The position numbers and the translations under genes are program-made. Source: an uncultured Candidatus Saccharibacteria bacterium (GTDB taxonomy: Bacteria > Patescibacteriota > Minisyncoccia > Phycocordibacterales > UBA918). From it: a DNA stretch of 64,000 nt. This document shows positions 16,024 to 63,953 of this stretch, piece after piece (position 1 is the stretch's first letter; each line of letters opens with the position of its first letter). The stretch is from NCBI GenBank assembly GCA_964643955.1, contig CAZXUO010000001.1, forward strand, positions 171,828-235,827, read 5' to 3'. Under the pieces are notes generated by a model. It did no database searches. It saw nothing but the letters and a program-made list of their open reading frames with translations, and was not told where the DNA came from.

Positions 16024-16095
16024 GGCCCTATCGTCTAACGGTTAGGACGGAGGCTTTTCAAGCCTTAAATCGGGGTTCGATTCCCCGTAGGGTCA
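16024..16095 (+). tRNA. tRNA-Glu (anticodon TTC)
   Basis: D-loop TCGTCTAACGG (typical of Glu). Anticodon loop TTTTCAA. T-arm GGGGTTCGATTCCCC. Confidence 0.85.
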
Positions 16096-16106
16096 TGGGT
16101 TTAGGA

Positions 16107-16146
16107 AAATAGCTCTCAAACGTTTTGTTTGGGAGCTATTTTCGTA
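16107..16146 (+). terminator. Hairpin terminator after tRNA-Glu (aaaatagctc...gagctatttt)
   Basis: 10-bp outer stem with an inner caaac/gtttg stem, followed by a T-run. Confidence 0.55.
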
Positions 16147-16240
16147 GACCCAACTATGATGCCTGGGAGGCAAATCGAACGGCCGGAGGAGACTTGCTTT
16201 CCGAGGCGGGCTCGCGACCGAGCGAAGCGAGAGTTGTGAG

Positions 16241-16259
16241 TCGATTCCCCGTAGGGTCA
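16241..16259 (+). repeat. Perfect 19-bp direct repeat of the tRNA-Glu 3' end (tcgattccccgtagggtca; original at 16077-16095)
   Basis: Exact match. No cloverleaf can be folded around the copy. Confidence 0.8.
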
Positions 16260-16265
16260 CATGAG

Positions 16266-16300
16266 ACAAACAGACACTCCCTGCGGAGTGTCTGTTTGCG
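16266..16300 (+). terminator. Strong terminator hairpin (acaaacagacactcc ctgc ggagtgtctgtttg)
   Basis: 14-bp perfect stem. Confidence 0.7.
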
Positions 16301-16425
16301 TATGTGAAGGCGGAGCCATGTCGCTTCGCGACAGGCGAGCCGAGATCGACAAGTACTTAGTTAAAATCTGCCGGAGGACTGATTTTACTTAGTAACTTGT
16401 GACCACAAGGACAGCTGGAGAAAGC

Positions 16426-16443
16426 TTTTGTTATAATCAATCC
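16426..16443 (+). promoter_or_regulatory. Extended -10 promoter (TGtTATAAT) directly abutting the ATG at 16444, implying a leaderless transcript
   Basis: TATAAT at 16432-16437 with TGn immediately upstream. There are 6 nt between the -10 element and the start codon. Confidence 0.45.
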
Positions 16444-16974
16444 ATGAACTTTGAAAACCCCTCGGAAAGCATCCGTTTCCCAAAAATTGCACAGGAGCTA
16501 CAAGAGATGGTGACTGTTGATCAAGACATGCGCAAGCGCAGTCTTACTGAAGACTACTGGGACGAAACTGTTGATGCGAGGAACACCGAGCGGATGAAAG
16601 AAATAATCGCAGAGATTGGGTGGCCAACAGCATCAAAAGTCGGACCGCAAGGAGTAAGTGATGCATGGCTCTTAGTGCAGCACGCTGACCATGATGTCGA
16701 TTTTCAGGAACGATGTTTAGAATTGATGAAAAAAGCACCTGCGGGTGAGATCGATATGATTGATGTTGCCTACCTGACAGACCGAATACGTGTAAATCAA
16801 GGCAAAGGACAATTATACGGTACGCAATTCACGCAGGAAGACGGAAAGCACATCCCGCGGACAATCGAAGATGAAGCAAACATAGACGCGCGAAGGGCTG
16901 AAATGGGGATGGGTCCTTTATCGGAACAAGTACAGCTCATGTACGATCGGTACCCATTTGAGAAAGAGGTATGA
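16444..16974 (+). CDS. Hypothetical protein (176 aa)
   Basis: ORF with a leaderless-type start. The upstream ATG at 16399 is an alternative. No family recognised. Confidence 0.4.
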   Translation: MNFENPSESIRFPKIAQELQEMVTVDQDMRKRSLTEDYWDETVDARNTERMKEIIAEIGWPTASKVGPQGVSDAWLLVQHADHDVDFQERCLELMKKAPAGEIDMIDVAYLTDRIRVNQGKGQLYGTQFTQEDGKHIPRTIEDEANIDARRAEMGMGPLSEQVQLMYDRYPFEKEV

Positions 16975-17031
16975 TCCGTCGCTACGTGAGCCGCGAAACC
17001 AAATGGGCGTCTCCGTAGTTTCTATCGGTGT

Positions 17032-17586
17032 ATGCTAAAAAATAACTTTGTTCGAATCGCCATCGGAACGGTGCTTTTATTACTTATTCCCCTCGTACTC
17101 ACTCTCACCGGCAGCGGTGTAGACGGGATCGGCTGGCACTGGACCCTCATGGACTTTGTTTTTATGTTCGTGCTCATTTTCGGCACCGGATCGCTCTTTG
17201 AGCTTGCACGGACGCACTACACGGGAAACAGCACCTACACCATCGCCGCCGGCCTCGCGCTCGCAGACACCTTCCTACTCGTGTGGATCAATGCCGCAGT
17301 CGGCATCATTGGTGACAGTGACATTAATGCTCTCTATTGGCTTGTCGTAATTACGCTTTTTCTCGGAGGCGCTGCATCGCGCTTCAAGCCACAAGGCCTC
17401 TCCCTAACCCTCTTCGCTGCAGCGGGGGTACAAATGCTCATTCCCGTCATCGCATTCATCATCAACCAACCCGATTTCTCACCGGGAGTTGTACACGTAT
17501 TCATGATCAATGCGACCTTTGCTGCAGTCTTCATTGCGTCAGGACTTCTCTTTCGAGCACGTGCACAGGCACCGAAGATCGCATAG
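17032..17586 (+). CDS. Hypothetical integral membrane protein
   Basis: 5-6 hydrophobic helices. Confidence 0.4.
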   Translation: MLKNNFVRIAIGTVLLLLIPLVLTLTGSGVDGIGWHWTLMDFVFMFVLIFGTGSLFELARTHYTGNSTYTIAAGLALADTFLLVWINAAVGIIGDSDINALYWLVVITLFLGGAASRFKPQGLSLTLFAAAGVQMLIPVIAFIINQPDFSPGVVHVFMINATFAAVFIASGLLFRARAQAPKIA

Positions 17587-17631
17587 CAAATAGAATGTCG
17601 GCTCCACACCGATGCGCTACACTAGGGAGGT

Positions 17632-18135
17632 ATGGGAAAAATCATCGTTGTCCGCGACAGCATCCAAAAGGGATATCAGTACGAGCTTGCGGAGCCTATA
17701 GGAAAGCATTTTGATCCCAGCTTCAAGCCACAGCTTACTCCGAAAGAAATGCTCAAACTCGGTGTCTTCGATGGCCTCTACCTCAACGACTGCACCGACG
17801 AGTTTCCTGAAGACTGGTTTACCCACGCAAAACTTGCTGACGGAAAACCAGATCCCTCGCTCAACTATTTCGGCATCCACGCATCCCAACCGCTTTCCGT
17901 ATGGCAGAAAAATGGATGGATTCATCGCGATGATCCCCGCGGGTGGTTTCAGTGGTATTGCCGATATTATCTAGGGCGAAGACACAGCGATGATGAGCGA
18001 CAAATAAAACGCTGGCGCGCAATCCATCGCCACATCGCACAGATCATCAACAACTGCATGAAAGCGGATCTCACCTGTCGACCGCGCCAGCGACAAGCGG
18101 TCTTGCACTGGGCGTACGATAGTCGGAAGTTCTAG
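17632..18135 (+). CDS. Conserved hypothetical protein containing a GWFQWYCRYYLGRR motif
   Basis: ORF with a Trp/Tyr-rich conserved-looking block. Family not recognised with confidence. Confidence 0.4.
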   Translation: MGKIIVVRDSIQKGYQYELAEPIGKHFDPSFKPQLTPKEMLKLGVFDGLYLNDCTDEFPEDWFTHAKLADGKPDPSLNYFGIHASQPLSVWQKNGWIHRDDPRGWFQWYCRYYLGRRHSDDERQIKRWRAIHRHIAQIINNCMKADLTCRPRQRQAVLHWAYDSRKF

Positions 18136-18185
18136 CTCCACAGCCTCCCCTTTTATCACGCGCGTGAGTGATATGATGTACGCAT

Positions 18186-18845
18186 ATGCCAATAGCAGCA
18201 GATGAACAAAAAAACGTAGCGACGAGTAGCACACCAAATGGTGCGCCCATGAAAAGTATATTATTCGGTGTAATAGGTGTCCTCATCCTCGCAGGTATTG
18301 CGTTCTATTTTACAAGCATGAAAAATGACGGATCACCACTCATGCCAGGTGGCGGCTCCGAGGTCGTAGACGAAAATCAGAATGATCACATCATACTCGG
18401 ACAAACATTTGAAGGTCCCGTCGCGACAGTTGCGAAAGCCGAATTTCCCCGACCCGGCTTCGTCGTCATTTATCGACTCGACAATGACGGCGTCATCTAC
18501 CTCTCAGGCCGCTCGGACCTCCTCGATGTAGGTACTCACCAAAACATCATCATCCCGCTCAACCAGCCACTCACTGACGGCGAGTCAGTCGGCGCAGTAC
18601 CACACCTTGACGATGGTAATAGTGAATTTGAATTTCCCGGCAATGATCGTCCCGCTGCGATCGATGGCGCTGATATCTATGACATCAGTATCGTGAATGC
18701 CGCAGACGACATGGGCGATATGACCTTTGCGATGACACTCGAAGCATTCCTCGCTACCGGCGCACCGATCGATACCTCAATACAAGAAAATATGACCGCA
18801 GAAGAAGGAACTGAAGTCGACATGAGTAATGACATGATTGAGTAA
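18186..18845 (+). CDS. Hypothetical membrane-anchored acidic protein
   Basis: An N-terminal TM segment (MKSILFGVIGVLILAGIAF) and an Asp-rich C-terminus. The start may be the Met at 18249. Confidence 0.4.
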   Translation: MPIAADEQKNVATSSTPNGAPMKSILFGVIGVLILAGIAFYFTSMKNDGSPLMPGGGSEVVDENQNDHIILGQTFEGPVATVAKAEFPRPGFVVIYRLDNDGVIYLSGRSDLLDVGTHQNIIIPLNQPLTDGESVGAVPHLDDGNSEFEFPGNDRPAAIDGADIYDISIVNAADDMGDMTFAMTLEAFLATGAPIDTSIQENMTAEEGTEVDMSNDMIE

Positions 18846-18851
18846 TACTGA

Positions 18852-18890
18852 ATACAAAAAGAAAAAGCGCCGGCCTCTGGCCGGCGCTTT
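18852..18890. terminator. Bidirectional terminator (aaaaagcgccggcc tctg gccggcgcttttt)
   Basis: Perfect 11-bp stem located between convergent genes. Confidence 0.8.
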
Positions 18891-18903
18891 TTCTTTCCCC
18901 TCT

Positions 18904-20679
18904 TTACTCCTCCTGCAAAAATCCTCCCGCCTGATGCTGCCAAAGTCGGGCATACAATCCCTCAGACTTAAGAAGCTCATCGTGCGTTCCGTCCTCGACG
19001 ATCACTCCTTTATCGAGCACGATGATACGATCCATTTCGCGGAGCGTTGAGAGTCTATGCGCGATCGCAACCACTGTCTTACCCTCCATGAGCACCCGAA
19101 GTGCCTTCTGAATAGCGACCTCGCTCTCGCTATCGAGTGCTGAAGTCGCCTCGTCGAGGACAAGTATCGGAGCATCTTTCAGCATGGCTCGCGCGATTGC
19201 TATGCGCTGTCGCTGCCCGCCTGAGAGCTTCACACCGCGCTCGCCCACGAGCGTCTCATACCCCTCCGGCAGTGTCGTGACGAAGTCATGTATTTGTGCC
19301 ATCGCGGCAGCACGTTCAATTTCTTCCAATGTTGCATCCGGCTTTCCATACGCAATATTTTCTCGAATGGTGCGGTGAAAGAGCATCGGCTCCTGCGGCA
19401 CAATAGTGATTGCTTCGCGGAGCGAGTCCTGCGTAACTTCTGCAATATTTTGTCCGTCAATCTCAATCACTCCTCCATTGAGATCATGCTGACGCAACAT
19501 AAGCGAAACAAACGTCGTCTTACCTGCACCACTTGGGCCCACAAGCCCCACCCGCTGCCCTGCAGGAATCTGGAGCGAGAAATCTCGAAAGACATCTGCT
19601 TCACCGTATTTAAACACCACATCCTTCCATTTGACCTCACCACCTGAAGCCTGAAGCTTCTGCGCTCCAGCAACTTCTGTAATCTCGTGTGACGAAAGGA
19701 GGGCCTCAAGACCTTCTTTCATTTCACCATATGACTCCGCCGTACTGTTGAACGCTTGCGATATAAAGATAAGTGTTCCAGCGAGATTGGCGACGAGCGA
19801 AAGCACAAGTACAAACTGACCTGTTGAAATACTACCGGCACTCCATCCTGTAATAAGGAAATAGAGCATTCCTGAAGTAAAAAGAAAGAGCATTGTACAG
19901 TTTATAAAAAGCATGTACTCCGAATAGCGCCAGTTCATTTGTTGACGCTTTTTTCTATATTCAATACGTTCCTTTATCGCTGCAAATTCGCGCCCGCGCA
20001 TACTAAATTGTCTGACGGCGGACATGTTTGTGAGCACGTCGACCGTATGTCCGCGCAGTGCCGTCACCGCTGCAGCACTTTTTTCAGAAAGCCGTCGTTT
20101 TTGTGGGACTAAGTAGGTGTTCAATACCAGCAATACACCGATAAAGACCAAGAAGGTCAGGCCGACGCGCGTATCTACACTCATCAAAAGTCCACACGTC
20201 ACGACAAGCGAAACAATCGTCGAGAGATGAGTCCACAGATAATTCTCAACAAAACTGCCGGTGCTATCTATGACATTATTCATATTGCTCAACAGCGATC
20301 CTGCAAATCTGTTTGCAAAAAAATTATGGCTGTGGTCCAAAAGATATTTTGTAAGTTCTTCAGTCACATACGCCCTACTCGTCGTAGACCACCGCATACC
20401 CAAGAGACCCGACACACGCCAGAGAAGCTGGATAAAATAGACGACGAGCGGATAGCCGATTCCGAGAAGTATCACCAACGTCGTATTTCCGGTTCCGGCA
20501 GCATCAATGATTTTTTGAAAAATAATGTAGGAAAGTTGTCCTAGAGTCTCTGCGAGCACCACCACAAACGTCGCAAAAACTGCCCACCATTTAGCAGGTC
20601 CTGCCGCATAGAAAAAGAAGCCGAGCGGCTTCTTCGGCATTTCTCCTATCTGCTGTTTTGGAGGCATTTCTTTAGCCAT
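18904..20679 (-). CDS. ABC transporter, fused permease and ATP-binding protein (MsbA-like exporter)
   Basis: Six-TM N-terminal domain. Walker A GPSGAGKT. Signature LSGGQRQRIAIARA. Walker B ILVLDEATSALD. Confidence 0.85.
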   Translation of the reverse strand: MAKEMPPKQQIGEMPKKPLGFFFYAAGPAKWWAVFATFVVVLAETLGQLSYIIFQKIIDAAGTGNTTLVILLGIGYPLVVYFIQLLWRVSGLLGMRWSTTSRAYVTEELTKYLLDHSHNFFANRFAGSLLSNMNNVIDSTGSFVENYLWTHLSTIVSLVVTCGLLMSVDTRVGLTFLVFIGVLLVLNTYLVPQKRRLSEKSAAAVTALRGHTVDVLTNMSAVRQFSMRGREFAAIKERIEYRKKRQQMNWRYSEYMLFINCTMLFLFTSGMLYFLITGWSAGSISTGQFVLVLSLVANLAGTLIFISQAFNSTAESYGEMKEGLEALLSSHEITEVAGAQKLQASGGEVKWKDVVFKYGEADVFRDFSLQIPAGQRVGLVGPSGAGKTTFVSLMLRQHDLNGGVIEIDGQNIAEVTQDSLREAITIVPQEPMLFHRTIRENIAYGKPDATLEEIERAAAMAQIHDFVTTLPEGYETLVGERGVKLSGGQRQRIAIARAMLKDAPILVLDEATSALDSESEVAIQKALRVLMEGKTVVAIAHRLSTLREMDRIIVLDKGVIVEDGTHDELLKSEGLYARLWQHQAGGFLQEE

Positions 20680-21856: not shown

Positions 21857-21932
21857 GCGCGGTTAGCTCAGCTGGTAGAGCATTACATTGACATTGTAAA
21901 GGCCATAGGTTCAAGTCCTATACCGCGCACCA
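21857..21932 (+). tRNA. tRNA-Val (anticodon GAC), CCA encoded
   Basis: GCGCGGT acceptor. TAGCTCAGCTGGTAGAGCA D-arm. Anticodon loop TTGACAT. GGTTCAAGTCC T-arm. Confidence 0.9.
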
Positions 21933-21992
21933 TTTAAATCCTAGCTTCGCTAGAATTTTGTACACAACACACTTACTCGTGAAATAAAAGCG

Positions 21993-22024
21993 AACCCCGA
22001 CGCTGGAAAGCGTCGGGGTTTCAG
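21993..22024. terminator. Hairpin terminator (ccccgacgc tggaaa gcgtcgggg ttt)
   Basis: 9-bp perfect stem followed by a T-run. Confidence 0.7.
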
Positions 22025-22038
22025 TTTGAGAGACAGAA

Positions 22039-22356
22039 TCATGGGCGGCGCAGTGCCCTCACGAGGCCAAGTGTCGTATAGCGGACTGCTTGGAGCGCAG
22101 TCTGTACTACGACCACGCCTTCGAGCAGGATCATTGCGCGATCGGCCATGAGGCCACCACGGAGCGCCGACTCGACGCGCGCTGCGTCTTGCGGCGAAAG
22201 GAAACTGCTGAGCCATTTGATGGCCCGTAGATTCCAGTCGAAGACCTCGACCAGCGTCTGCGGGTGGTAAAACCACGCGTAGACGACAACCACGATACCG
22301 ATGATGTTCACGAGGACAGTCCCCGTGAATTTGCCGACAAACTTTAAAAAGTTCAT
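22039..22356 (-). CDS. Small hypothetical membrane protein
   Basis: Two hydrophobic helices. Confidence 0.3.
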   Translation of the reverse strand: MNFLKFVGKFTGTVLVNIIGIVVVVYAWFYHPQTLVEVFDWNLRAIKWLSSFLSPQDAARVESALRGGLMADRAMILLEGVVVVQTALQAVRYTTLGLVRALRRP

Positions 22357-48447: not shown

Positions 48448-48482
48448 AATAAAACCGCCGGCCTAAAGGCCGGCGGTTTTTT
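48448..48482 (+). terminator. Terminator (aaaaccgccggcc taaa ggccggcggtttttt)
   Basis: Perfect 11-bp stem. Confidence 0.8.
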
Positions 48483-48483
48483 G

Positions 48484-48502
48484 GTGCTTGGGGCCGGGTT
48501 CG
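48484..48502 (-). repeat. 19-bp direct copy of the tRNA-Phe 3' end (gtgcttggggccgggttcg; original at 48670-48688)
   Basis: Exact repeat lying 168 bp beyond the tRNA 3' end. Confidence 0.8.
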
Positions 48503-48670
48503 GTCACGAATCACTAAGTCTTTTGTTCACTTCGTTCCAAAAGACTAAGTGTTCGCGACCCCACCTTGGCGCTTCATCCCGCAACGCGGGCGCACCTCCG
48601 GCTTTCTCACCCAGCCAGCAATACATGAGAATAAAAAAGGCCTGCTCGAAGCAGGTCTTTTTTATTCTTG

Positions 48671-48743
48671 TGCTTGGGGCCGGGTTCGAACCGGCGACCC
48701 CTTCCTCTTCAGGGAAGTGCTCTACCAACTGAGCTACCCAAGC
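48671..48743 (-). tRNA. tRNA-Phe (anticodon GAA)
   Basis: Reverse complement is GCTTGGGTAGCTCAGTTGGTAGAGC...CTGAAGA...GGTTCGAACCCGGCCCCAAGCA. Confidence 0.85.
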
Positions 48744-49087: not shown

Positions 49088-49217
49088 TATATCAAAGCAG
49101 CTCTCATTTAAGCCAAAAGTTGTTCAGTAGCATTGTTAAAAAGCAGATACTTGACTTTTCTTGAAATTTATAGTTAAATCCTCGACAGGAAACGCACCTA
49201 TACACGGAGGATCTCGC

Positions 49218-49916
49218 GTGGAAACATCACGCATCTATGGGTCGAAGAGCAATCTGCGACCCATCTACGTCATGCATGAGGAGGGTCTGGAGTCATCACA
49301 TCTCCAGGCCGTCCTCGATGGTGTCTCTGCGGTCTGCAGGATCGCGGGCGTCGCCGACAAGGTCGGGATCCACAATCTCGGCGCTTGGAGGGGTTCCGGT
49401 TGGCGCGCGGGCAACACGCTCACCAGCTGGAACAGCATCGACTGGTATCTTGCGCATACGCGCAACGCCAGTCGGAACGACCGCCAGCTCCACGGCGGCC
49501 ATCTCATGCAACTGCTCTACAACGAGCCGTGGCAGGAGCTTGCGCCGCACTACGATATCGTGGTGACCCATTCGGATCTGTACGACGACGGGTGCAACTT
49601 CTGCATCGGTCTCGCGATCCGTGGGCTCGGCACGGTCATCTCGACCAACCGGTTCATGGGGCTGGATGCCCGCGCCGCGCGCGAGTGCATCATCACAGAG
49701 ACAATGCACGAGGTCGGTCACGTCTTCGGGCTCGTTCCCGAAGATCGCACCGACAACGTGGAGATGTCGCTTGGGTTGCACTGCACCAACCGGTGCATCA
49801 TGCGGCAGGGGCTCTCGGTGCCCCATGACTGGGTCACGATTACGAACGATCGGCTTGCGGGACATGAGTTCTGCTCGACCTGTCGTCGTGATCTCCGTCG
49901 TTTCTTCTGTACCTAG
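49218..49916 (+). CDS. Archaemetzincin-like zinc metallopeptidase (M54-like), high-GC
   Basis: HEVGHVFG, then GLHCTNRCIM (GxHCxxxCxM), then CSTC about 23 aa later. Upstream is CNFCIGLAIRGLGTVISTNRF. A GTG start is preceded by GGAGGA. Local GC is about 65% against about 48% for the flanks. Confidence 0.55.
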   Translation: METSRIYGSKSNLRPIYVMHEEGLESSHLQAVLDGVSAVCRIAGVADKVGIHNLGAWRGSGWRAGNTLTSWNSIDWYLAHTRNASRNDRQLHGGHLMQLLYNEPWQELAPHYDIVVTHSDLYDDGCNFCIGLAIRGLGTVISTNRFMGLDARAARECIITETMHEVGHVFGLVPEDRTDNVEMSLGLHCTNRCIMRQGLSVPHDWVTITNDRLAGHEFCSTCRRDLRRFFCT

Positions 49917-49974: not shown

Positions 49975-49996
49975 GTGCCCTCGGCAGGAATCGAAC
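49975..49996 (-). repeat. 22-bp direct copy of the tRNA-Arg 3' end (gtgccctcggcaggaatcgaac; original at 50116-50137)
   Basis: Exact repeat lying 118 bp beyond the tRNA 3' end. Confidence 0.8.
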
Positions 49997-50113
49997 ATTA
50001 CATGTTCAGTACAGGTTGCCGATAATTTTTTCACACGTTCAAAATTATCTGGCAACCTTTTCGATTCCGTGCGACCAACACAAAAAGCCGGACGGGAGTC
50101 CGACTCTTTATGT

Positions 50114-50188
50114 TGGTGCCCTCGGCAGGAATCGAACCTACATCTTTCCCTTAGGACGGGACTGCTCTATCCATTGAGCTACGAAGGC
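50114..50188 (-). tRNA. tRNA-Arg (anticodon CCT), CCA encoded
   Basis: Acceptor GCCTTCG/CGAGGGC with one G-U pair. D-arm GCTCAATGGATAGAGC. Anticodon loop GTCCTAA. T-arm GTAGGTTCGATTCCTGC. The anticodon stem has one mismatch. Confidence 0.7.
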
Positions 50189-57587: not shown

Positions 57588-58042
57588 TTCGATTACTTAT
57601 ACCTCGTAATACATATCAGCATATCATGAACGAACAACAGCCCCCGAAGGGGCTGTTGTTTTCTGGTGCCGATAAGCCGAATTCTGTACGCAGATATACT
57701 CTGCGTGATAGTCATTTATCTGGGATGATTGTTACCAATCACCTCAAGCGGCACTTCTTTTGTAGGCATATGCTGCTACAAAAGACACGGCCTTGCGCGC
57801 AGGTAGGAATTTAGCCGTTTCACCTCGCACGTCGCCATGCAAGCTCATCTCATCATTGCTGATGAGATGCTCTCATCCTTTCGTAGAGAGCGTCTCTGCT
57901 CGCATCCCGAAGATTTCTCTCGATGGGCGTTACCCACTACCGTCCTCCTCTATTGCTAGAGGGCGTGTTCGGACTTTCCTCCCGCACCCATATTAGGTAC
58001 GAGCGACTATCTGGCACAACAATATTATACAATACGAAACAA

Positions 58043-58622: not shown

Positions 58623-61600
58623 CTACGGACACGAGTACGAGAAGGTCGACCCTGCAAACGCTTCGTGTACAAGGTTGTAGAGATTAAGATCGTATTGCTG
58701 CAACTCGGACTTTGTATTTACGTAATTGTGAATACCATTTGGATTTGTTGCTTGGAGATTTGTGTTGAAGTACGACTGCACACCCTCTGCCCAATATTCT
58801 TCGTGATTAGTGCGTGCGTACGTATTTGCCCACAAGCCTGCTGACATTGCTACCTGGTATGCCTGCTGTACTCGACCGACAAATGATCCATCGAGACCGA
58901 GATTGAGAATTGAGTGTGCAAATTCGTGCACAAAGACGCTCTCTCCGCGGTATCGATCAGCGGTATAACAGAGGAGATTTTCTTCAGCTGCTGTTGAGTA
59001 CGGCATAAACGTGGTGCCGCCGAGACCACGTGCGCGGTTGTCCCAATCCGTTCCTGGGAACTGCGAGTAGAGATTGCGGTGCTCTGGAATATCAGTCGTC
59101 ACTTCATTCTTTGACATGATACCCACGCGATGTCCGTTTCCGTTCATCGTGACAAATACATCAGCGCGCTTCTCGAGCATACGTGACGCAAGTCGAGCGG
59201 CTTCAGCAACCGCAGCATTTGGCGTAGCCGAAGATGCGGCAAAACGCATACCCTTATAATCGCAATACTTGTCGTACCACGGATCAAGTCCGAGACCCTG
59301 TGCTTCACTATCACTAATCGTTCTCACCGTACACACTGCTGATGCCTGCGGTGTCTGTGGTTGCGTCGGAGTGGTTGGTGTCGTTGGTTGTGTTGGTACC
59401 GTCGGCTGCGTGACCACGGGTGCAGTTACCTTAAACGAGATCGAGCTACAGTTATTATTTTCGTTTGACTCTCCGACAAGATTGGTCACATCTGCGCAGA
59501 AATAGACGCGATGATCTCCAGCGGTCGGCGACCATACGATAGACACCGGTGCCGAGAGACCTCCTGCGGTAATTCCGGTTACAAGCGGATCAATTCCACC
59601 AATACGACCACTCGAAGATGTACATGATTCATTGTTGAGACAGAACCGTGTGTAGAAGACATCCGCAATACCCCCTGTGTTACGCACATTCGCCATAAAT
59701 GTGATTGGCGTACCTGCAACGAGCGTGTTCGTGAGTCGTGTAAGACCTTCAGGACGAAGTTCTGGCAATACTGGTGCCTGAACGGGTGGTACATAGATTG
59801 GCTGCTGCGGCGTCTGCGGTTGTTGTGGTGCTGATGGCGCTCCTACTCCCGTACCATTTCCTGAAAGATAATTCATGACCGGCGTGTACGCAGGCTTTCG
59901 TGAATCACCTCCCTGACGCACCAGACCAAAACTATTTTCGGTGGTCTCAAAGTCAGCATTACCAATACCCGACCAATCAGAATCACGATATTCGTATACA
60001 AGCACTGGCGAGATACCAACTGCTGAGATTGCCTGCACTGACTTCAAGATAATGTCAGTCTGCTGCGATTCACTTCTTCCTGGACCTTGTGATGCCATTC
60101 CCGTCTCAGCGGTGTAGATACGCTTTTCAGGATAGCGATTCTTTAGTTGGCCAAAGAATGACGGAATCTGATCGAATGCGCGCTGATAGTTTGCGTCAAT
60201 TCCCTGCCCAGGCAGATACACGTCCATACCGATCCAGTCGATTGAAGGACGTACTGCGTCAATAAATGCGAAGAGTCGATTGAGATTTTGTGCGGTCATT
60301 GCCTCAGTGACGCCAGGTGCGCCTGAGATAGACATCGTGATTGGCGCACTGCTGTGAGCGCGGATAGCCGAGCGAGCAACCGCCATCGTCTCACCAAGCT
60401 CTGAGAGATACGACGTGCGCATCGCGAGCGTGTCGGCAGAATCCCAATTTGAGAAGGTGCGATTTGCGAGTGCACCAGGACGGAGATCAGGGAGTGTCCA
60501 ATTTGGCTCCCACAGATGATTACCCGTTCGATAGTCGGTGATGTTTGCTTCGTTGGTCACCTGCCAGAGATCGACATTGCCCGCAAACTGTCGCGCGAGG
60601 TAGTCCATGTGTGTACGCGTGAGTTCAAGATATTCACTATGAGTGAATTGTTGTGAACGCGCATTCAAACGCGGAATAAGGTTGAGCTGTACTTTAAGTC
60701 CTTTTGATTTTGCGTACGCAACGGCTTCCTTGTATCGATCGATGTGCGCTTGATTGAAGGTGATGTTTGTTGGACTTGCGATGTTGAGCATCGTGTCCCA
60801 CTCCTGTACATAGAGACGCACCCACGCAACCTCACCTGCGATATCATCGATTGCGCGCTTGAAGTCAGCAAGTACGGGGCCGTCTGCGGTATTACTTGAG
60901 CCTTGCATCTGTACTGTAAATCCAAATTCTGCGCTACCTCCAACAACCGGAGGAATCACCGGCTCAACAGGAACAACCGGTACTACAGGCACGACAGGAG
61001 GAACGACAGCTCCTGAGACCTCAAGCTCGATTGAAGCGCAGTTATTGTCTCGATTTACCTCAGGCACATCATCGTCTGTGTTTACACAGAAATAAAGTGT
61101 GTGGTCTCCCGCTTCTGCAGTCCATGTGCGCGATACTGGCAACGACGTCTCTCCTGACTGGAGTGGCAAACCTTGTGCAGAGACACGATGACCCGGATTA
61201 AGTCGGCCATTTGCATTCGTCAAACAATTTGGATTGTCGATACAGAAACGCGCCCATGAGTCTGGTGCAGGAGCATTACCGATATTTCGAATGTACGCGA
61301 TAAATGTCACGTACGAACCTGTCGTGATTGGCCCCGTGCCAATACGAGCAACTCCTGTTGGTACAAGATCGTGCTGGCCTATCGGCGTTGGAATGATTGG
61401 TGTTTCAATATCAGGAACTTCTATCGGATACGTAGGGACGACTGGGACCGTCGGCGTCACGGGTACGATCGGCACTTGAGCAGCAGTTCCCTCCACATAC
61501 ACCGGAAATGAGGTGCAGTTGTTGTCTTCGTTTGATTCAGTGACTGCCCTGCTTACATCTGCACAGAAATAAATCGTATGTGTACCTCCGGTCGCAGTCC

Positions 61601-63953
61601 ACGTGGCTGCAACCGGAGTTGAGACGGTGTTTTGACTCATTATTCCGATCGTATGGCTTGAACCGATCGTACCTGCTGAACTATCGAGACACTCGTCGTT
61701 GTCAACGCAAAAACGTGCCTGCGATGTACCTGCGACGCCGCCGAGATTGCGCACATTTGAGAGAAATGTCACGGGATCGCCTGCGCGAATAATGCCTGTG
61801 CCTAGGCGTGTGAAATTGACTGGATTGAGATCAGGCTGGATGGTAGTAACCGGAGGTACTACCTGTGTTTGAGAGACAACCGTAACAGTAACGTGCGCGC
61901 AGTTGTTATTTTCGTTTGATTCACTAAGTGCTCGAGTAACATCGGTACAGAAATATACCGTGTACGTTCCTGCGCTCGAAGGGACCCAGCTACGAGTTAC
62001 GAGGCCATGAGTCTGAGATTGCTGGAGTGATGGGATGCTCTGATCAGTACCAAGACGTCCAGACGTACTTGTCGTGCAGTTTTCATTATCAACGCATATA
62101 CGTGCGAATGATGAATTTGCAACTCCACCAGCATTCCCGACATATCCCATCACACTAATCGGTGTACCGAGGTACACCGCACCCGCAGGTGACGCAGAGA
62201 ATCCAGAAACATAGAGATCGGGCTGGATCGTCGTTACCGGAGGTACGATAGGCTCAGAAACAGTCGCCGCGTTTACACTAAAAGTGAGTGACGTACAGTT
62301 GTTGTCTTCGTTTGATTCAGTCACCTGTGCACTTGGACTTGGATCTGCGCAGAAATAAATCGTGTGCGTACCCGCGGTCGCAGCCCACGTACTTGAAGTC
62401 ATCGTGCGACTCGTTTGATTGCTTCCGAGCGATCCACCTGAAGTCGAGAGTCGATGTCCGTCGCCAAGTCGCGTATTTGCCGAACCATAGCAATCTCCTT
62501 CCCCTCGACTATCGATACAAAAGCGCGCCCACGAGTCAGGGGCTGTTGCATTACCGTAGTTGCGGACTGCAGCAGAAAATACGACCGGCTGCCCCGCAGT
62601 AATTGCTCCCGATGGCGAACGCATGAGGTTGATCGGAATAAGATCCGCACGCAATGTCGGCGCTTCTACCGGCGCATTCACGCTGAAAGAAAGTGACGTA
62701 CAGTTGTTTGAAAGGGATCCTTCTGCTACGCGCGGGTTACCAGTATTGGCACACATATAGACCGTGTGATTGCCTGCGACTGCTGTCCACGTGCGTGCTT
62801 GTGACGCAGAACTATTTGGATCGAGCGCGGGAATAGTCTGATCTGAACCGATGTACCCTGCGTCATTGTTAAGACAATCTGCATTGTTGAGACAGAAACG
62901 CACCCACGGCCCACCCACCGAACGAGTCGCGCCTACGTTGCGCACTGAACCAGAGAAGGTCATGAGCTGGCCAGCGGTTATCGTCCCTGATGGCGAACGC
63001 GTGAGATTGATCGCAGAAAAATCAGCAGGAGTTGCGACAGGTGCAGTGCCTACGCTAAACGTCATTGACGTACAGTTGTTACTTTCGTTTGACTCATTGA
63101 CCTGCGGACTTGGACTTGGGTCTGCACAGAAATAAATCGTGTGCGTGCCTTGCGTTGCGGTCCATGTACGTGATGCAGACGAGGACGTCTGACCTGCGGG
63201 GAGCGGACTTCCCGATTCAGAAAGTCGATGACCAGGATCGAGACGGCCGTTTGTTGACGTGAGACAGCTTGAATTATCGATACAGAAGCGTGCCCATGAG
63301 TCGGGTGCTTCTGCGGTACCTTGGTTGCGCACCGCCGCGGTAAAGGTTACTTCTGTACCCGCAGTCAATGTGCCTGATGGTGAGCGCGAGAGACCAACAG
63401 GAATGAGGTCTGCACGCGCTGAAGAAGACGTATCGGTTGCTGCATTCACGGTAAACGTGAGCGAAGCACAGTTGTTGTTGAGTGTACTTTCTGGTACAGG
63501 AGGGTTACCAGTGTTTACACAAAAGTATGCCGTATGAGTACCGGCAGTCGCATTCCATGCACGCGTGTATGTATCTGACACCTGATCAGCATTGAGTGCC
63601 GTTGTCGACGGATCAAAACCTATGTGACCCGTATCGCTCGTCAAACAATTTGGATTATCGATACAGAAGCGTGCCCATGGTGCGTATGGATTGTCACCAC
63701 CTTGATTGCGTACTGCCGCAGAAAAATAAACCTGCGACCCTTCAGTGATCGTGCCCGAAGGATTGCGTGAGAAGTTTGCAGGCACAAGATCAGGTGTACC
63801 TGATGTCTGCGCCACCATACTTCCCTGCAACAGCTGCACCAAACGCTCAAGAAGCGACACCTGCGTCACGAGTGACGACGATGTCTGTGCGAACGCAGGC
63901 ATTGCGATAGCAAAAGCGAGTGTGAGCGAAAGGATTCCGGTAGTTAATCTCAT
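58623..63953 (-). CDS. Giant secreted surface protein (1776 aa): signal peptide, about 10 CARDB-like repeat domains, a clan GH-A-like glycoside hydrolase domain, further CARDB repeats and a C-terminal HEFAH zincin-like domain
   Basis: The repeated unit reads DL.P.....P.G.I..G..V.F...VRN.G...A.....ARFC.DN..C...(T/S)G..TIYFC.D....V.ES.E.NNC. The GH domain contains WQVTNEAN. The zincin-like motif is VHEFAHSIL. Confidence 0.7.
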   Translation of the reverse strand: MRLTTGILSLTLAFAIAMPAFAQTSSSLVTQVSLLERLVQLLQGSMVAQTSGTPDLVPANFSRNPSGTITEGSQVYFSAAVRNQGGDNPYAPWARFCIDNPNCLTSDTGHIGFDPSTTALNADQVSDTYTRAWNATAGTHTAYFCVNTGNPPVPESTLNNNCASLTFTVNAATDTSSSARADLIPVGLSRSPSGTLTAGTEVTFTAAVRNQGTAEAPDSWARFCIDNSSCLTSTNGRLDPGHRLSESGSPLPAGQTSSSASRTWTATQGTHTIYFCADPSPSPQVNESNESNNCTSMTFSVGTAPVATPADFSAINLTRSPSGTITAGQLMTFSGSVRNVGATRSVGGPWVRFCLNNADCLNNDAGYIGSDQTIPALDPNSSASQARTWTAVAGNHTVYMCANTGNPRVAEGSLSNNCTSLSFSVNAPVEAPTLRADLIPINLMRSPSGAITAGQPVVFSAAVRNYGNATAPDSWARFCIDSRGEGDCYGSANTRLGDGHRLSTSGGSLGSNQTSRTMTSSTWAATAGTHTIYFCADPSPSAQVTESNEDNNCTSLTFSVNAATVSEPIVPPVTTIQPDLYVSGFSASPAGAVYLGTPISVMGYVGNAGGVANSSFARICVDNENCTTSTSGRLGTDQSIPSLQQSQTHGLVTRSWVPSSAGTYTVYFCTDVTRALSESNENNNCAHVTVTVVSQTQVVPPVTTIQPDLNPVNFTRLGTGIIRAGDPVTFLSNVRNLGGVAGTSQARFCVDNDECLDSSAGTIGSSHTIGIMSQNTVSTPVAATWTATGGTHTIYFCADVSRAVTESNEDNNCTSFPVYVEGTAAQVPIVPVTPTVPVVPTYPIEVPDIETPIIPTPIGQHDLVPTGVARIGTGPITTGSYVTFIAYIRNIGNAPAPDSWARFCIDNPNCLTNANGRLNPGHRVSAQGLPLQSGETSLPVSRTWTAEAGDHTLYFCVNTDDDVPEVNRDNNCASIELEVSGAVVPPVVPVVPVVPVEPVIPPVVGGSAEFGFTVQMQGSSNTADGPVLADFKRAIDDIAGEVAWVRLYVQEWDTMLNIASPTNITFNQAHIDRYKEAVAYAKSKGLKVQLNLIPRLNARSQQFTHSEYLELTRTHMDYLARQFAGNVDLWQVTNEANITDYRTGNHLWEPNWTLPDLRPGALANRTFSNWDSADTLAMRTSYLSELGETMAVARSAIRAHSSAPITMSISGAPGVTEAMTAQNLNRLFAFIDAVRPSIDWIGMDVYLPGQGIDANYQRAFDQIPSFFGQLKNRYPEKRIYTAETGMASQGPGRSESQQTDIILKSVQAISAVGISPVLVYEYRDSDWSGIGNADFETTENSFGLVRQGGDSRKPAYTPVMNYLSGNGTGVGAPSAPQQPQTPQQPIYVPPVQAPVLPELRPEGLTRLTNTLVAGTPITFMANVRNTGGIADVFYTRFCLNNESCTSSSGRIGGIDPLVTGITAGGLSAPVSIVWSPTAGDHRVYFCADVTNLVGESNENNNCSSISFKVTAPVVTQPTVPTQPTTPTTPTQPQTPQASAVCTVRTISDSEAQGLGLDPWYDKYCDYKGMRFAASSATPNAAVAEAARLASRMLEKRADVFVTMNGNGHRVGIMSKNEVTTDIPEHRNLYSQFPGTDWDNRARGLGGTTFMPYSTAAEENLLCYTADRYRGESVFVHEFAHSILNLGLDGSFVGRVQQAYQVAMSAGLWANTYARTNHEEYWAEGVQSYFNTNLQATNPNGIHNYVNTKSELQQYDLNLYNLVHEAFAGSTFSYSCP

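Follow-up and report, generated by a model that had tools for sequence, protein, structure and literature searches.

The 3'-end repeat behind tRNA-Glu in a Saccharibacteria genome as the probable boundary of a small structured insertion element

The repeat at tRNA-Glu and its two sister loci

In a 64,000-nt stretch of DNA from an uncultured Candidatus Saccharibacteria bacterium (contig CAZXUO010000001.1, positions 171,828 to 235,827; hereafter the window), the gene for tRNA-Glu(UUC) is followed by an exact copy of its own 3' end, and this repeat, with the putative insertion element that it bounds, is the subject of our analysis. The repeated 19 nt, TCGATTCCCCGTAGGGTCA, extend in the first copy from T-loop position 55 to the discriminator of the tRNA. 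They occur exactly twice in the whole window, at 16077-16095 and 16241-16259, both on the + strand, and none of 100 dinucleotide-preserving shuffles of the window gave any match at two or fewer mismatches. The 145-nt spacer between the copies (16096-16240) has a predicted fold of -70.8 kcal/mol (z = -6.9) and opens with a 57-nt hairpin (16096-16152); a 14-bp hairpin, read directly off the sequence, lies behind the second copy (16267-16298). A consensus terminator scan scores neither hairpin, because their U-tracts are weak. A preliminary description, made from the sequence alone, had reported the 19-bp copy, a hairpin on either side of it and two sister instances, all of which we recover: a k-mer search with every tRNA of the window found a 19-nt copy downstream of tRNA-Phe and a 22-nt copy downstream of tRNA-Arg, and no 3'-end copy for tRNA-Ser or tRNA-Val. 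The three inserts measure 139-186 nt and have a common layout. An independent Logan assembly of another run (L283; L numbers label the genome and metagenome loci compared with the window) covers 16066-19449, including the spacer and the second copy, and differs from the window by two mismatches only, both far downstream; the repeat is therefore real, and the assembly artefact that had been considered as an explanation is not what we find.

The features of the three loci are listed below, where R1 is a covariance model built from 17 cores and L026, labelled uncultured Candidatus Saccharibacteria, is the closest locus found.

16024-16095, + strand: tRNA-Glu(UUC), target of the insert (ARAGORN; Rfam tRNA, 64.8 bits); intact, CCA not encoded, 72/72 identical to L026
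16096-16152, + strand: trailer, a long hairpin directly after tRNA-Glu, element-borne (fold; 51/57 identical to L026); its 3' strand overlaps the 5' arm
16144-16179, + strand: Glu 5' arm, GTAGACCCAAC, complement of the acceptor 3' strand with 1 mismatch
within the Glu 5' arm, + strand: AAATCGAA, complement of T-loop TTCGATT (sequence reading)
16161-16171, + strand: small hairpin GCCTGGGAGGC inserted in the Glu 5' arm (sequence reading)
16172-16246, + strand: Glu type-A core, a three-way junction (R1, 53.7 bits, E 1.5e-15)
16241-16259, + strand: Glu 3' arm, the exact 19-nt copy from T55 to discriminator; 19/19 identical in L026
16267-16298, + strand: hairpin after the Glu 3' arm, 14 bp, loop CTGC (sequence reading); not homologous to the same-place hairpin in L026
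16300-16408, + strand: second type-A core, 'armless' (R1, 39.7 bits, E 5.6e-11); closing helix TGTG/CACA, right end GTGAC followed by CAC
48670-48743, - strand: tRNA-Phe(GAA), instance 2 (ARAGORN, Rfam); functional copy without encoded CCA
48484-48669, - strand: Phe element, instance 2 (R1, 57.8 bits; fold z -5.9), with type-A core 48498-48611, terminator 48641-48655 and a degenerate 5' arm
48484-48502, - strand: Phe 3' arm, 19 nt, then CCA, an A-run and a terminator at 48451-48480
50114-50188, - strand: tRNA-Arg(CCU), instance 3 (ARAGORN, Rfam)
49975-50113, - strand: Arg element, instance 3, with a 'type B' core (fold z -5.35; R1 only 12 bits, a weak partial match)
about 50085-50104, - strand: terminator-like hairpin of the Arg element
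50060-50081, - strand: Arg 5' arm, GTGTTGGTCGCACGGAATCGAA
50014-50057, - strand: long hairpin of the Arg element
49997-50013, - strand: motif TGTACTGAACATGTAAT of the Arg element
49975-49996, - strand: Arg 3' arm, 22 nt

The hairpin-bearing unit at tRNA-Glu is ~165 nt long (16096-16259) and its conserved core ~75 nt. In the minimum free energy fold of 16140-16262 the closing helix is the 5' arm paired to 16250-16261; within the core, hairpin P2 reads GCC[GGA]GGA...TCC[GA]GGC, with a tandem G·A internal loop, and hairpin P3 reads GCTCGCG...GTTGTGAG, with the tip cGAAg. Trailer hairpins equivalent to 16096-16152 were found at other loci. The hairpin at 16267-16298 is probably the terminator of the tRNA flank as it stood before insertion, or else that of the next unit, and the armless core comes directly after it. 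The type B core of the Arg element, AAGGTGTACYGAACATGTAATGTTCGA, is shared with elements behind tRNA-Ser in L056 and L111, and the segment GAACATGTAATGTTCGA of the Arg element is common to the one in L056.

A structured element family, its targets and its empty sites

The 3' half of tRNA-Glu is common mostly to metagenome-assembled genomes (MAGs) of the candidate phyla radiation (CPR), and among 121 genomic matches to it, 18 have a second 3'-end copy 106-297 nt downstream. Three of these 18 are in Bacteroidota, where they are tandem tRNA-Glu genes (L073, L088) or, in L064, partial repeats of a Leadbetterella locus; the remaining 15 belong to Patescibacteria or unclassified MAGs and have one architecture, and more diverged copies were spotted by eye. 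Along the tRNA strand, from 5' to 3', the parts are a trailer containing a hairpin or terminator, the 5' arm, AAAG(A/C)CGGAG, P2, GAG(G/T)CGGGGTCGCG, P3, YGTGAC and the 3' arm, P2 and P3 being variable hairpins and the 3' arm being the repeat. The 5' arm is the reverse complement of the tRNA 3' end (e.g. GTGACCCTACGGGGAATCGAA), and in some loci it is interrupted by a hairpin at the position that the D and anticodon arms take in a tRNA. The internal loop of P2 is GGA/GA, a tandem G·A, and the tips of P3 are often cGAAg or GA-rich.

A search for the spacer in related genomes, which the preliminary description proposed, finds that its core recurs, and 47 copies, from the window and from genome and metagenome loci of Patescibacteria, were aligned. 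R1 gave 30 matches in 119 genome loci, all in CPR-labelled or unclassified MAGs and none in the Bacteroidota and Proteobacteria loci that share the tRNA-Glu 3' half, and 22 matches in 120 metagenome loci picked with a core 14-mer. In the window, the Glu and Phe cores hint that cores behind different tRNAs of a single genome group together. In the 47-copy alignment, 91.1% of pair cells hold standard pairs compared with 71.4% in shuffles (0/500 shuffles as high), the covariation score is 0.518 compared with 0.169 after shuffling and at most 0.085 with slid partners, and double-sided changes occur at 16 of the 18 pairs. One G·U pair is retained in 44 of the 47 copies, and an adjacent pair alternates between G·U and G-C (21 and 20 copies, respectively). 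The conserved G·U and the covariation establish the core as a folded single strand of tRNA-sense polarity. The duplex energy of the arms is equal on both strands (mean -18.1 and -17.9 kcal/mol), so the arms carry no strand information; P3 does.

A second tRNA, a transfer-messenger RNA (tmRNA) or a known non-coding RNA (ncRNA) in the spacer, which would have explained the repeat differently, was rejected: ARAGORN found no second tRNA, Rfam 15 at its gathering threshold reported only five tRNAs and RNase P RNA in the whole window, and E-value scans of the Glu, Phe and L117 elements against Rfam gave sub-threshold hairpin or terminator matches or none. The region does fold, into a conserved structure that lies outside Rfam. 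Two other identities were tried and rejected. A hammerhead-like reading of the CGAAA and CYGAGGC motifs does not fit the helix order or the conserved strands at the junction, and the Rfam ribozyme models were unmatched. In a retroviral-type primer-binding site the 5' arm would likewise complement a tRNA end, but here the would-be partners of CCA vary (TTG, GCGG and others). Full-text literature searches gave no description of such elements, and the family's structured core appears to be undescribed.

The upstream gene, where it is identifiable, lies on the same strand directly 5' of the element and is that for tRNA-Glu, Val, Phe, Arg, Leu, Lys, Ala, Ser, Asp or Met, for tmRNA or, once, rplL; for several matches (L010, L198, L282) the sequence compared includes no upstream gene. 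In arm-bearing copies the 3' arm equals the last 14-21 nt of that gene, mostly 18-21, usually starting at C56 of the T-loop. The inner motif of the 5' arm shifts in step with the 3' arm (AATCG/CGATT, AATTG/CAATT, ATTTG/CAAAT, AGTCG/CGACT), and L023 has a G-to-T change in its 3' arm for which the 5' arm compensates. The arm helix is near-perfect over 17-20 bp in L117, L016, L076-E2 and L273-Met and weak in many others; relative to shuffles the pairing is moderate in the window's Phe copy (z -2.58) and reaches z -7.7 in the strongest copies elsewhere. Armless cores, closed by YTTGTG/CACAAR and ending in GTGAC followed by CAC, stand behind tRNAs in the window (16300-16408), L045, L110, L011, L176 and L252. 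In L255 a core follows the rplL stop codon (the protein ends GGKVTLK*), and beyond it the final codons of the gene recur with changes at synonymous sites only; targets are therefore not confined to tRNA-like genes. Counted over all loci, 37 of the 190 tRNAs with sufficient downstream sequence have their last 16 nt repeated in the next 1.5 kb downstream, five have an upstream copy and none an exact inverted copy; three of the 37 are tandem tRNA genes in Bacteroidota loci, and some of the 37 are without a type-A core.

Two further observations concern the arms. In the element behind tmRNA in L165 (3110-3681, - strand), the 5' arm is complementary to the tmRNA 3' end over two blocks of 12 nt with an inserted hairpin between them, and the 3' arm is only a poor copy of the tmRNA end. 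In L218 (2326-2399) and L272 (391-493), the usually invariant GAA of the 5' motif reads GGA, and these are exactly the two elements with an upstream tRNA whose T-loop has TCC rather than TTC. This coincidence, of two cases only, hints that the 5' arm may match the tRNA beyond the duplicated part.

Comparison with relatives that lack the duplication points to insertion. L031 is filled and L005 empty: the 118 nt behind the 3' arm of L031 are 83% identical to the sequence directly after tRNA-Glu in L005. L022 is an empty tRNA-Phe site: behind the gene come CCA, an A-run and a terminator, and an HSP20 gene lies at a distance of 76 nt; the window has this arrangement behind the 3' arm of the Phe element and not behind the tRNA. 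The functional tRNA-Phe copy in the window (48670-48688, - strand) is followed by AAG and its encoded CCA is gone, whereas the displaced copy (48484-48502) keeps CCA, the A-run and the terminator, as in the empty L022; the insertion therefore removed the encoded CCA of the gene. The window and L026 are identical at 72/72 positions of tRNA-Glu, 51/57 of the trailer hairpin, 61/69 of the core and 19/19 of the 3' arm, and their homology stops right after GGGTCACA, at the outer end of the 3' arm. The next shared gene (window 17632-18135) begins ~50 nt after the arm in L026 and 1.36 kb after it in the window. The ~1.36 kb absent from L026 (window 16260-17620) comprise the hairpin, the armless core, a DUF6624 gene (16444-16974), whose exact-protein look-up returned the same strain only, and an unknown 184-aa open reading frame (ORF; 17032-17586). 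These comparisons uphold the att-like geometry noticed in the preliminary description, with an intact tRNA, an insert and a displaced 3'-end copy marking insertion into or at a tRNA gene.

Elements also occur in arrays and with cargo. In L178, L194 and L273 the complete unit, trailer through arm, occurs in tandem; in L076 three elements follow one another, with a 107-aa ORF separating the first from the second, and L246 has a 179-aa ORF between tRNA-Lys and the core, neither ORF having a Pfam match. In one genome (L001, L042) near-identical units stand behind two different tRNA-Glu genes. A related arrangement was seen in a Campbellbacteria MAG (L030, 2061-2350), where a 79-aa GIY-YIG-domain ORF directly after tRNA-Val is followed by a ~35-nt copy of the variable-loop, T-arm and acceptor 3' part of the tRNA; this insert has no type-A core. 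Two recurrent trailers that are unrelated to the element occupy the first ~70 nt after tRNA-Glu elsewhere: CCAACTCGTGCTAGCACGAGAAGCATAC... in L069, L053, L051, L081 and L099, and CATTCAGAAACTT...GCGCGCCGAAGGCGCG in L067, L068, L084 and L097.

The rest of the window is ordinary chromosome, with genes for S1, TyrRS, Pth, FtsA/FtsZ, TsaD, a class I aminoacyl-tRNA synthetase, LepA and MurJ and for RNase P RNA. Between the Arg 3' arm and tRNA-Phe lies a GC-rich gene (49161-49916, + strand; 59.5% GC, window 49.4%) with a weak match to peptidase M54 (archaemetzincin-like), which may have been acquired horizontally. In the region 21857-22356, tRNA-Val has no 3'-end duplication; behind it come a terminator and, on the opposite strand, a 105-aa ORF that is GC-rich (57.9%) and has no Pfam match. 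The RNase P RNA is of class A (57657-58022, - strand; 134 bits) and adjoins a gene for a 1776-aa protein with six CARDB repeats (58623-63953, - strand).

How the elements may move, and competing explanations

We favour, with moderate confidence, the reading that the repeat is the right-hand boundary of a small non-coding insertion element directly 3' of tRNA-Glu, which is non-autonomous and is mobilised in trans as a folded single strand. The element would move as single-stranded DNA or as RNA; by analogy with the attC sites of integrons or the attP site of CTX phage, its two arms would pair to form a duplex copy of the target end beside the conserved junction, and an enzyme encoded by the host or by a helper could then carry out recombination between the outer end of this helix and the target gene's 3' end. 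The product would have the order intact gene, element, arm and old flank. The three copies in the window are probably resident, partly decayed insertions, since the 5' arm at tRNA-Glu pairs only weakly.

Some loci bear on where the crossover would fall. In L246 the 3' end that the tRNA itself carries is a perfect partner for the 5' acceptor strand, with which the displaced arm would fail to pair; judged from the sequence, the displaced copy thus looks foreign and not native, contrary to the prediction of a crossover in the T-loop. The arms of L276 and L255 similarly look like functional ends from another lineage. These features, together with the break between the window and L026 at the outer end of the arm, fit a crossover at that outer end.

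Searches for a mobilising enzyme were negative. No integrase, transposase, HUH nuclease or reverse transcriptase domain was found by Pfam in any ORF of the window, and a survey of 150 ORFs within 3.5 kb of ~45 elements, which gave 118 Pfam families, shows no such domain in the 25 commonest, the ones listed; the same holds for IS110-type and tnpA/tnpB genes, and the neighbour families listed are housekeeping ones. A scan of viral contigs with the 5' core motif yielded 43 loci without a real element, one of which (L132) is a coding-sequence coincidence, and an origin as a phage attP site was rejected. With no mobilising domain in the window ORFs or the listed neighbour families, and with the viral scan empty, the elements are non-autonomous. 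Of the two origins offered in the preliminary description, the miniature non-autonomous insert thus agrees with the empty sites in related genomes and with a recombinase gene being found neither inside the element nor nearby; the remnant left after deletion does not agree with a spacer whose structure covaries and is conserved behind many tRNAs and across many genomes. Among the neighbours, RmuC-family genes occur in 4 of the ~45 element loci, which probably reflects synteny near tRNA-Glu, although RmuC is presumed to act on inverted repeats.

Several points weigh against the trans-mobilised single strand that we favour. Arm pairing is strong (z < -2 relative to shuffles) in only 15 of the 47 copies and is weak in the Glu copy of the window (duplex z -1.24), so either the arm helix (P1) is not a general requirement or many copies have decayed. 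The duplication extends 13-17 nt past the tRNA end in L098 and L076-E3, where the trailer is also duplicated, and in L246, L276 and L255 the arm and the end of the target are not identical; the duplicated trailers and the native-looking CCA flank behind the Phe arm cut against any single simple crossover point. The analysis turned up neither an enzyme nor an excised or circular form, nor any copy lying away from a target, and the matches in the 43 viral-contig loci are chance ones. Mobility is deduced from presence and absence between species-level relatives rather than from within-population variation, and both the genome and the metagenome samples were picked by element or tRNA-Glu patterns, so that the frequencies are biased. 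As for the form of the moving strand, terminators stand between the tRNA and the core and no promoter is evident, which argues against an RNA intermediate or expression from the tRNA promoter. An RNA form is favoured by the tandem G·A pairs and by the conserved G·U, both of which resemble features of RNA; cGAAg mini-hairpins are typical of stable DNA hairpins.

A bolder version of a base-pairing role, which we offer as a doubtful though conceivable proposal, is that the elements form a programmable class, in which a junction scaffold with exchangeable base-pairing arms would specify the 3' end of a highly expressed gene (tRNA, tmRNA or rplL) and an enzyme widespread in Patescibacteria, so far unconnected with mobility, would act there. 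Such insertion would be guide-directed in a manner unlike that of CRISPR-associated transposons, IS110 bridge RNAs or group II introns. As an explanation of the repeat itself, base-pair-guided insertion is in our view unlikely. It would make the 5' arm a guide to the sense strand of the target, the 3' arm a target-site duplication produced by staggered nicks or target-primed synthesis, and the core a scaffold for a recombinase, nuclease or reverse transcriptase acting in trans. One core does occur with at least 12 different target sequences, including the end of a protein-coding gene; the 3' arms are mostly exact copies, and the duplication ranges from 14 to more than 30 nt, sometimes including the trailer. 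Complementarity of the 5' motif spans the whole T-loop and takes in T54-T55, two positions that the 3' arm lacks, and the 5' arm of the tmRNA copy matches the tmRNA end over 12+12 nt where the 3' arm is poor. The replacement of GAA by GGA in both elements whose tRNA has TCC (L218, L272) would also follow from guiding, but the correlation consists of two cases, and GGA could pair instead with the element's own ACC. Against a guide, no candidate effector gene is linked to the elements, the 5' arm of L023 tracks the 3' arm and not the tRNA, and the arms that depart from the target's end at 2-3 positions (L246, L276, L255) demand later drift.

We regard it as quite unlikely that the structure is a host ncRNA gene whose closing helix mimics the acceptor and T-stem of the neighbouring tRNA and is trimmed by RNase P, RNase Z and the CCA-adding enzyme, the repeat then being a partial tandem duplication of the tRNA. 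The strong covariation, the tandem G·A motifs, the conserved G·U and the sense-strand polarity are all expected of such an RNA, and the 3' arm is usually followed by a hairpin or terminator. The 5' arm, moreover, has segments like the acceptor 5' strand and the T-stem 5' strand in that order, sometimes with a hairpin at the place of the D and anticodon arms, and the position directly after tRNAs recalls the RNase-Z-processed dicistrons cited in PMC12045711. A minihelix of acceptor and T-stem ending at the discriminator is, however, a feature of the tRNA-linked copies and is lacking in the armless and rplL-linked ones. The tRNA and the core are split by terminators with no promoter seen, the distribution is patchy with empty sites in close relatives, there are tandem identical units and units that carry ORFs, and the 5' arms are often degenerate where the 3' arms stay exact.

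Integrase-type integration classically leaves a direct repeat of a tRNA 3' end that begins in the T-loop, and the geometry of the repeat agrees with this. Even so, we consider an ordinary attL/attR scar, left by an integrase island or prophage in tRNA-Glu that was later deleted down to ~145 bp, highly improbable: independent deletions cannot yield a ~75-nt core with compensatory changes at 47 sites, the window holds no integrase remnant, and its three inserts of 139-186 nt have one layout. A chance repeat or an assembly artefact, for which nothing speaks beyond the short length of the repeat, has practically no chance of being right given the shuffles, the three instances in the window, the agreement of the independent assembly and the arrangement kept in L026.

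Relation to known systems and consequences for Patescibacteria

The elements resemble integrative elements that target tRNA and tmRNA genes in that the 3' part of the gene is the target, the gene stays intact, a copy of its 3' end marks the far boundary, insertions can be successive or tandem, the element brings a new trailer and terminator, and empty sites have the same flank (L005 and L031; L022 and the Phe locus of the window). They differ in being 125-300 nt long without an integrase, in having a covarying single-strand structure and a complementary 5' arm in place of arm-type protein sites, in that the displaced copy can apparently be foreign (L246) and in that one target is protein-coding. 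A classical tyrosine integrase that targets tRNA genes is a candidate for the responsible enzyme, but the compensatory changes in the variable helices are not explicable by double-stranded protein-binding sites.

Integron cassettes offer another parallel, being non-autonomous units with zero or one ORF and an imperfect inverted repeat that acts as a folded single strand, arranged in arrays and served by a recombinase in trans, and the crossover at attC, as here, apparently lies near the outer end of the 3' arm. The present elements, in contrast, have no R'/R'' boxes (RYYYAAC...GTTRRRY); their arms are the target's own sequence and vary by tRNA, their arrays start at a tRNA gene, their central part is conserved in sequence whereas attC is conserved in structure only, they have no attI platform, and IntI was found neither among the window ORFs nor among the 25 most frequent neighbour Pfam families. 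The folded single-stranded attP of CTX phage and of integrative mobile elements exploiting Xer (IMEX) presents a two-arm hairpin that imitates the chromosomal target duplex to an enzyme that the element does not encode, as the present arms may do where their helix is near-perfect; the target here is the 3' end of tRNA, tmRNA and rplL genes rather than dif, and the unit is ~150 nt rather than a phage genome.

RNA-guided systems, namely the bridge or seek RNAs of IS110/IS1111, the tigRNAs of tandem interspersed guide RNA (TIGR) systems and the omega RNAs of TnpB/IscB, also combine a structured scaffold with short segments that match both target strands, and they have many targets. The elements described here have no adjacent DEDD, Tas, TnpB or IscB gene; their arms pair with each other over the same target stretch and are not unpaired in loops or at an end; and they have a 14-22-nt target duplication. 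TIGR-Tas stem arrays do occur in CPR bacteria, with unpaired dual spacers and an adjacent Tas gene, unlike these elements (PMC12045711). IS200/IS605 insertion sequences and palindrome-associated transposable elements (PATEs) are associated with tnpA/tnpB and make no target duplication, in contrast to the 14-22 nt duplicated here. Miniature inverted-repeat transposable elements (MITEs) differ from these elements, whose inverted arms are target-derived and whose repeat is 14 to more than 30 nt rather than of fixed length. Finally, processed RNAs linked to tRNAs, such as plant dicistrons of tRNA and small nucleolar RNA (snoRNA) or mascRNA, share a small structured RNA 3' of a tRNA or an acceptor/T-stem mimic cleavable by tRNA enzymes; the differences are the intervening terminators, the armless and rplL copies and the insertion-type distribution.

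If our reading is correct, Patescibacteria carry a widespread and unannotated family of tiny structured inserts that remodel the 3' flank of tRNA genes, tmRNA genes and at least one ribosomal-protein gene, swap their terminators and sometimes add a gene. In the window, the immediate effects are a replaced tRNA trailer and terminator and, at tRNA-Phe, the loss of the encoded CCA. A pseudo-3'-end behind about one-fifth of the tRNAs in the sampled loci can break assemblies and mislead predictors of tRNAs and genomic islands. One scaffold with a dozen target-matched arms and no linked enzyme would point to a mechanism that depends on single-strand structure or is guided by base pairing, of a kind undescribed for tRNA targets. 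With a covariance model, pairs of empty and filled sites and cultivable Saccharibacteria, the choice between RNA and single-stranded DNA and the identity of the acting enzyme may be approached experimentally.

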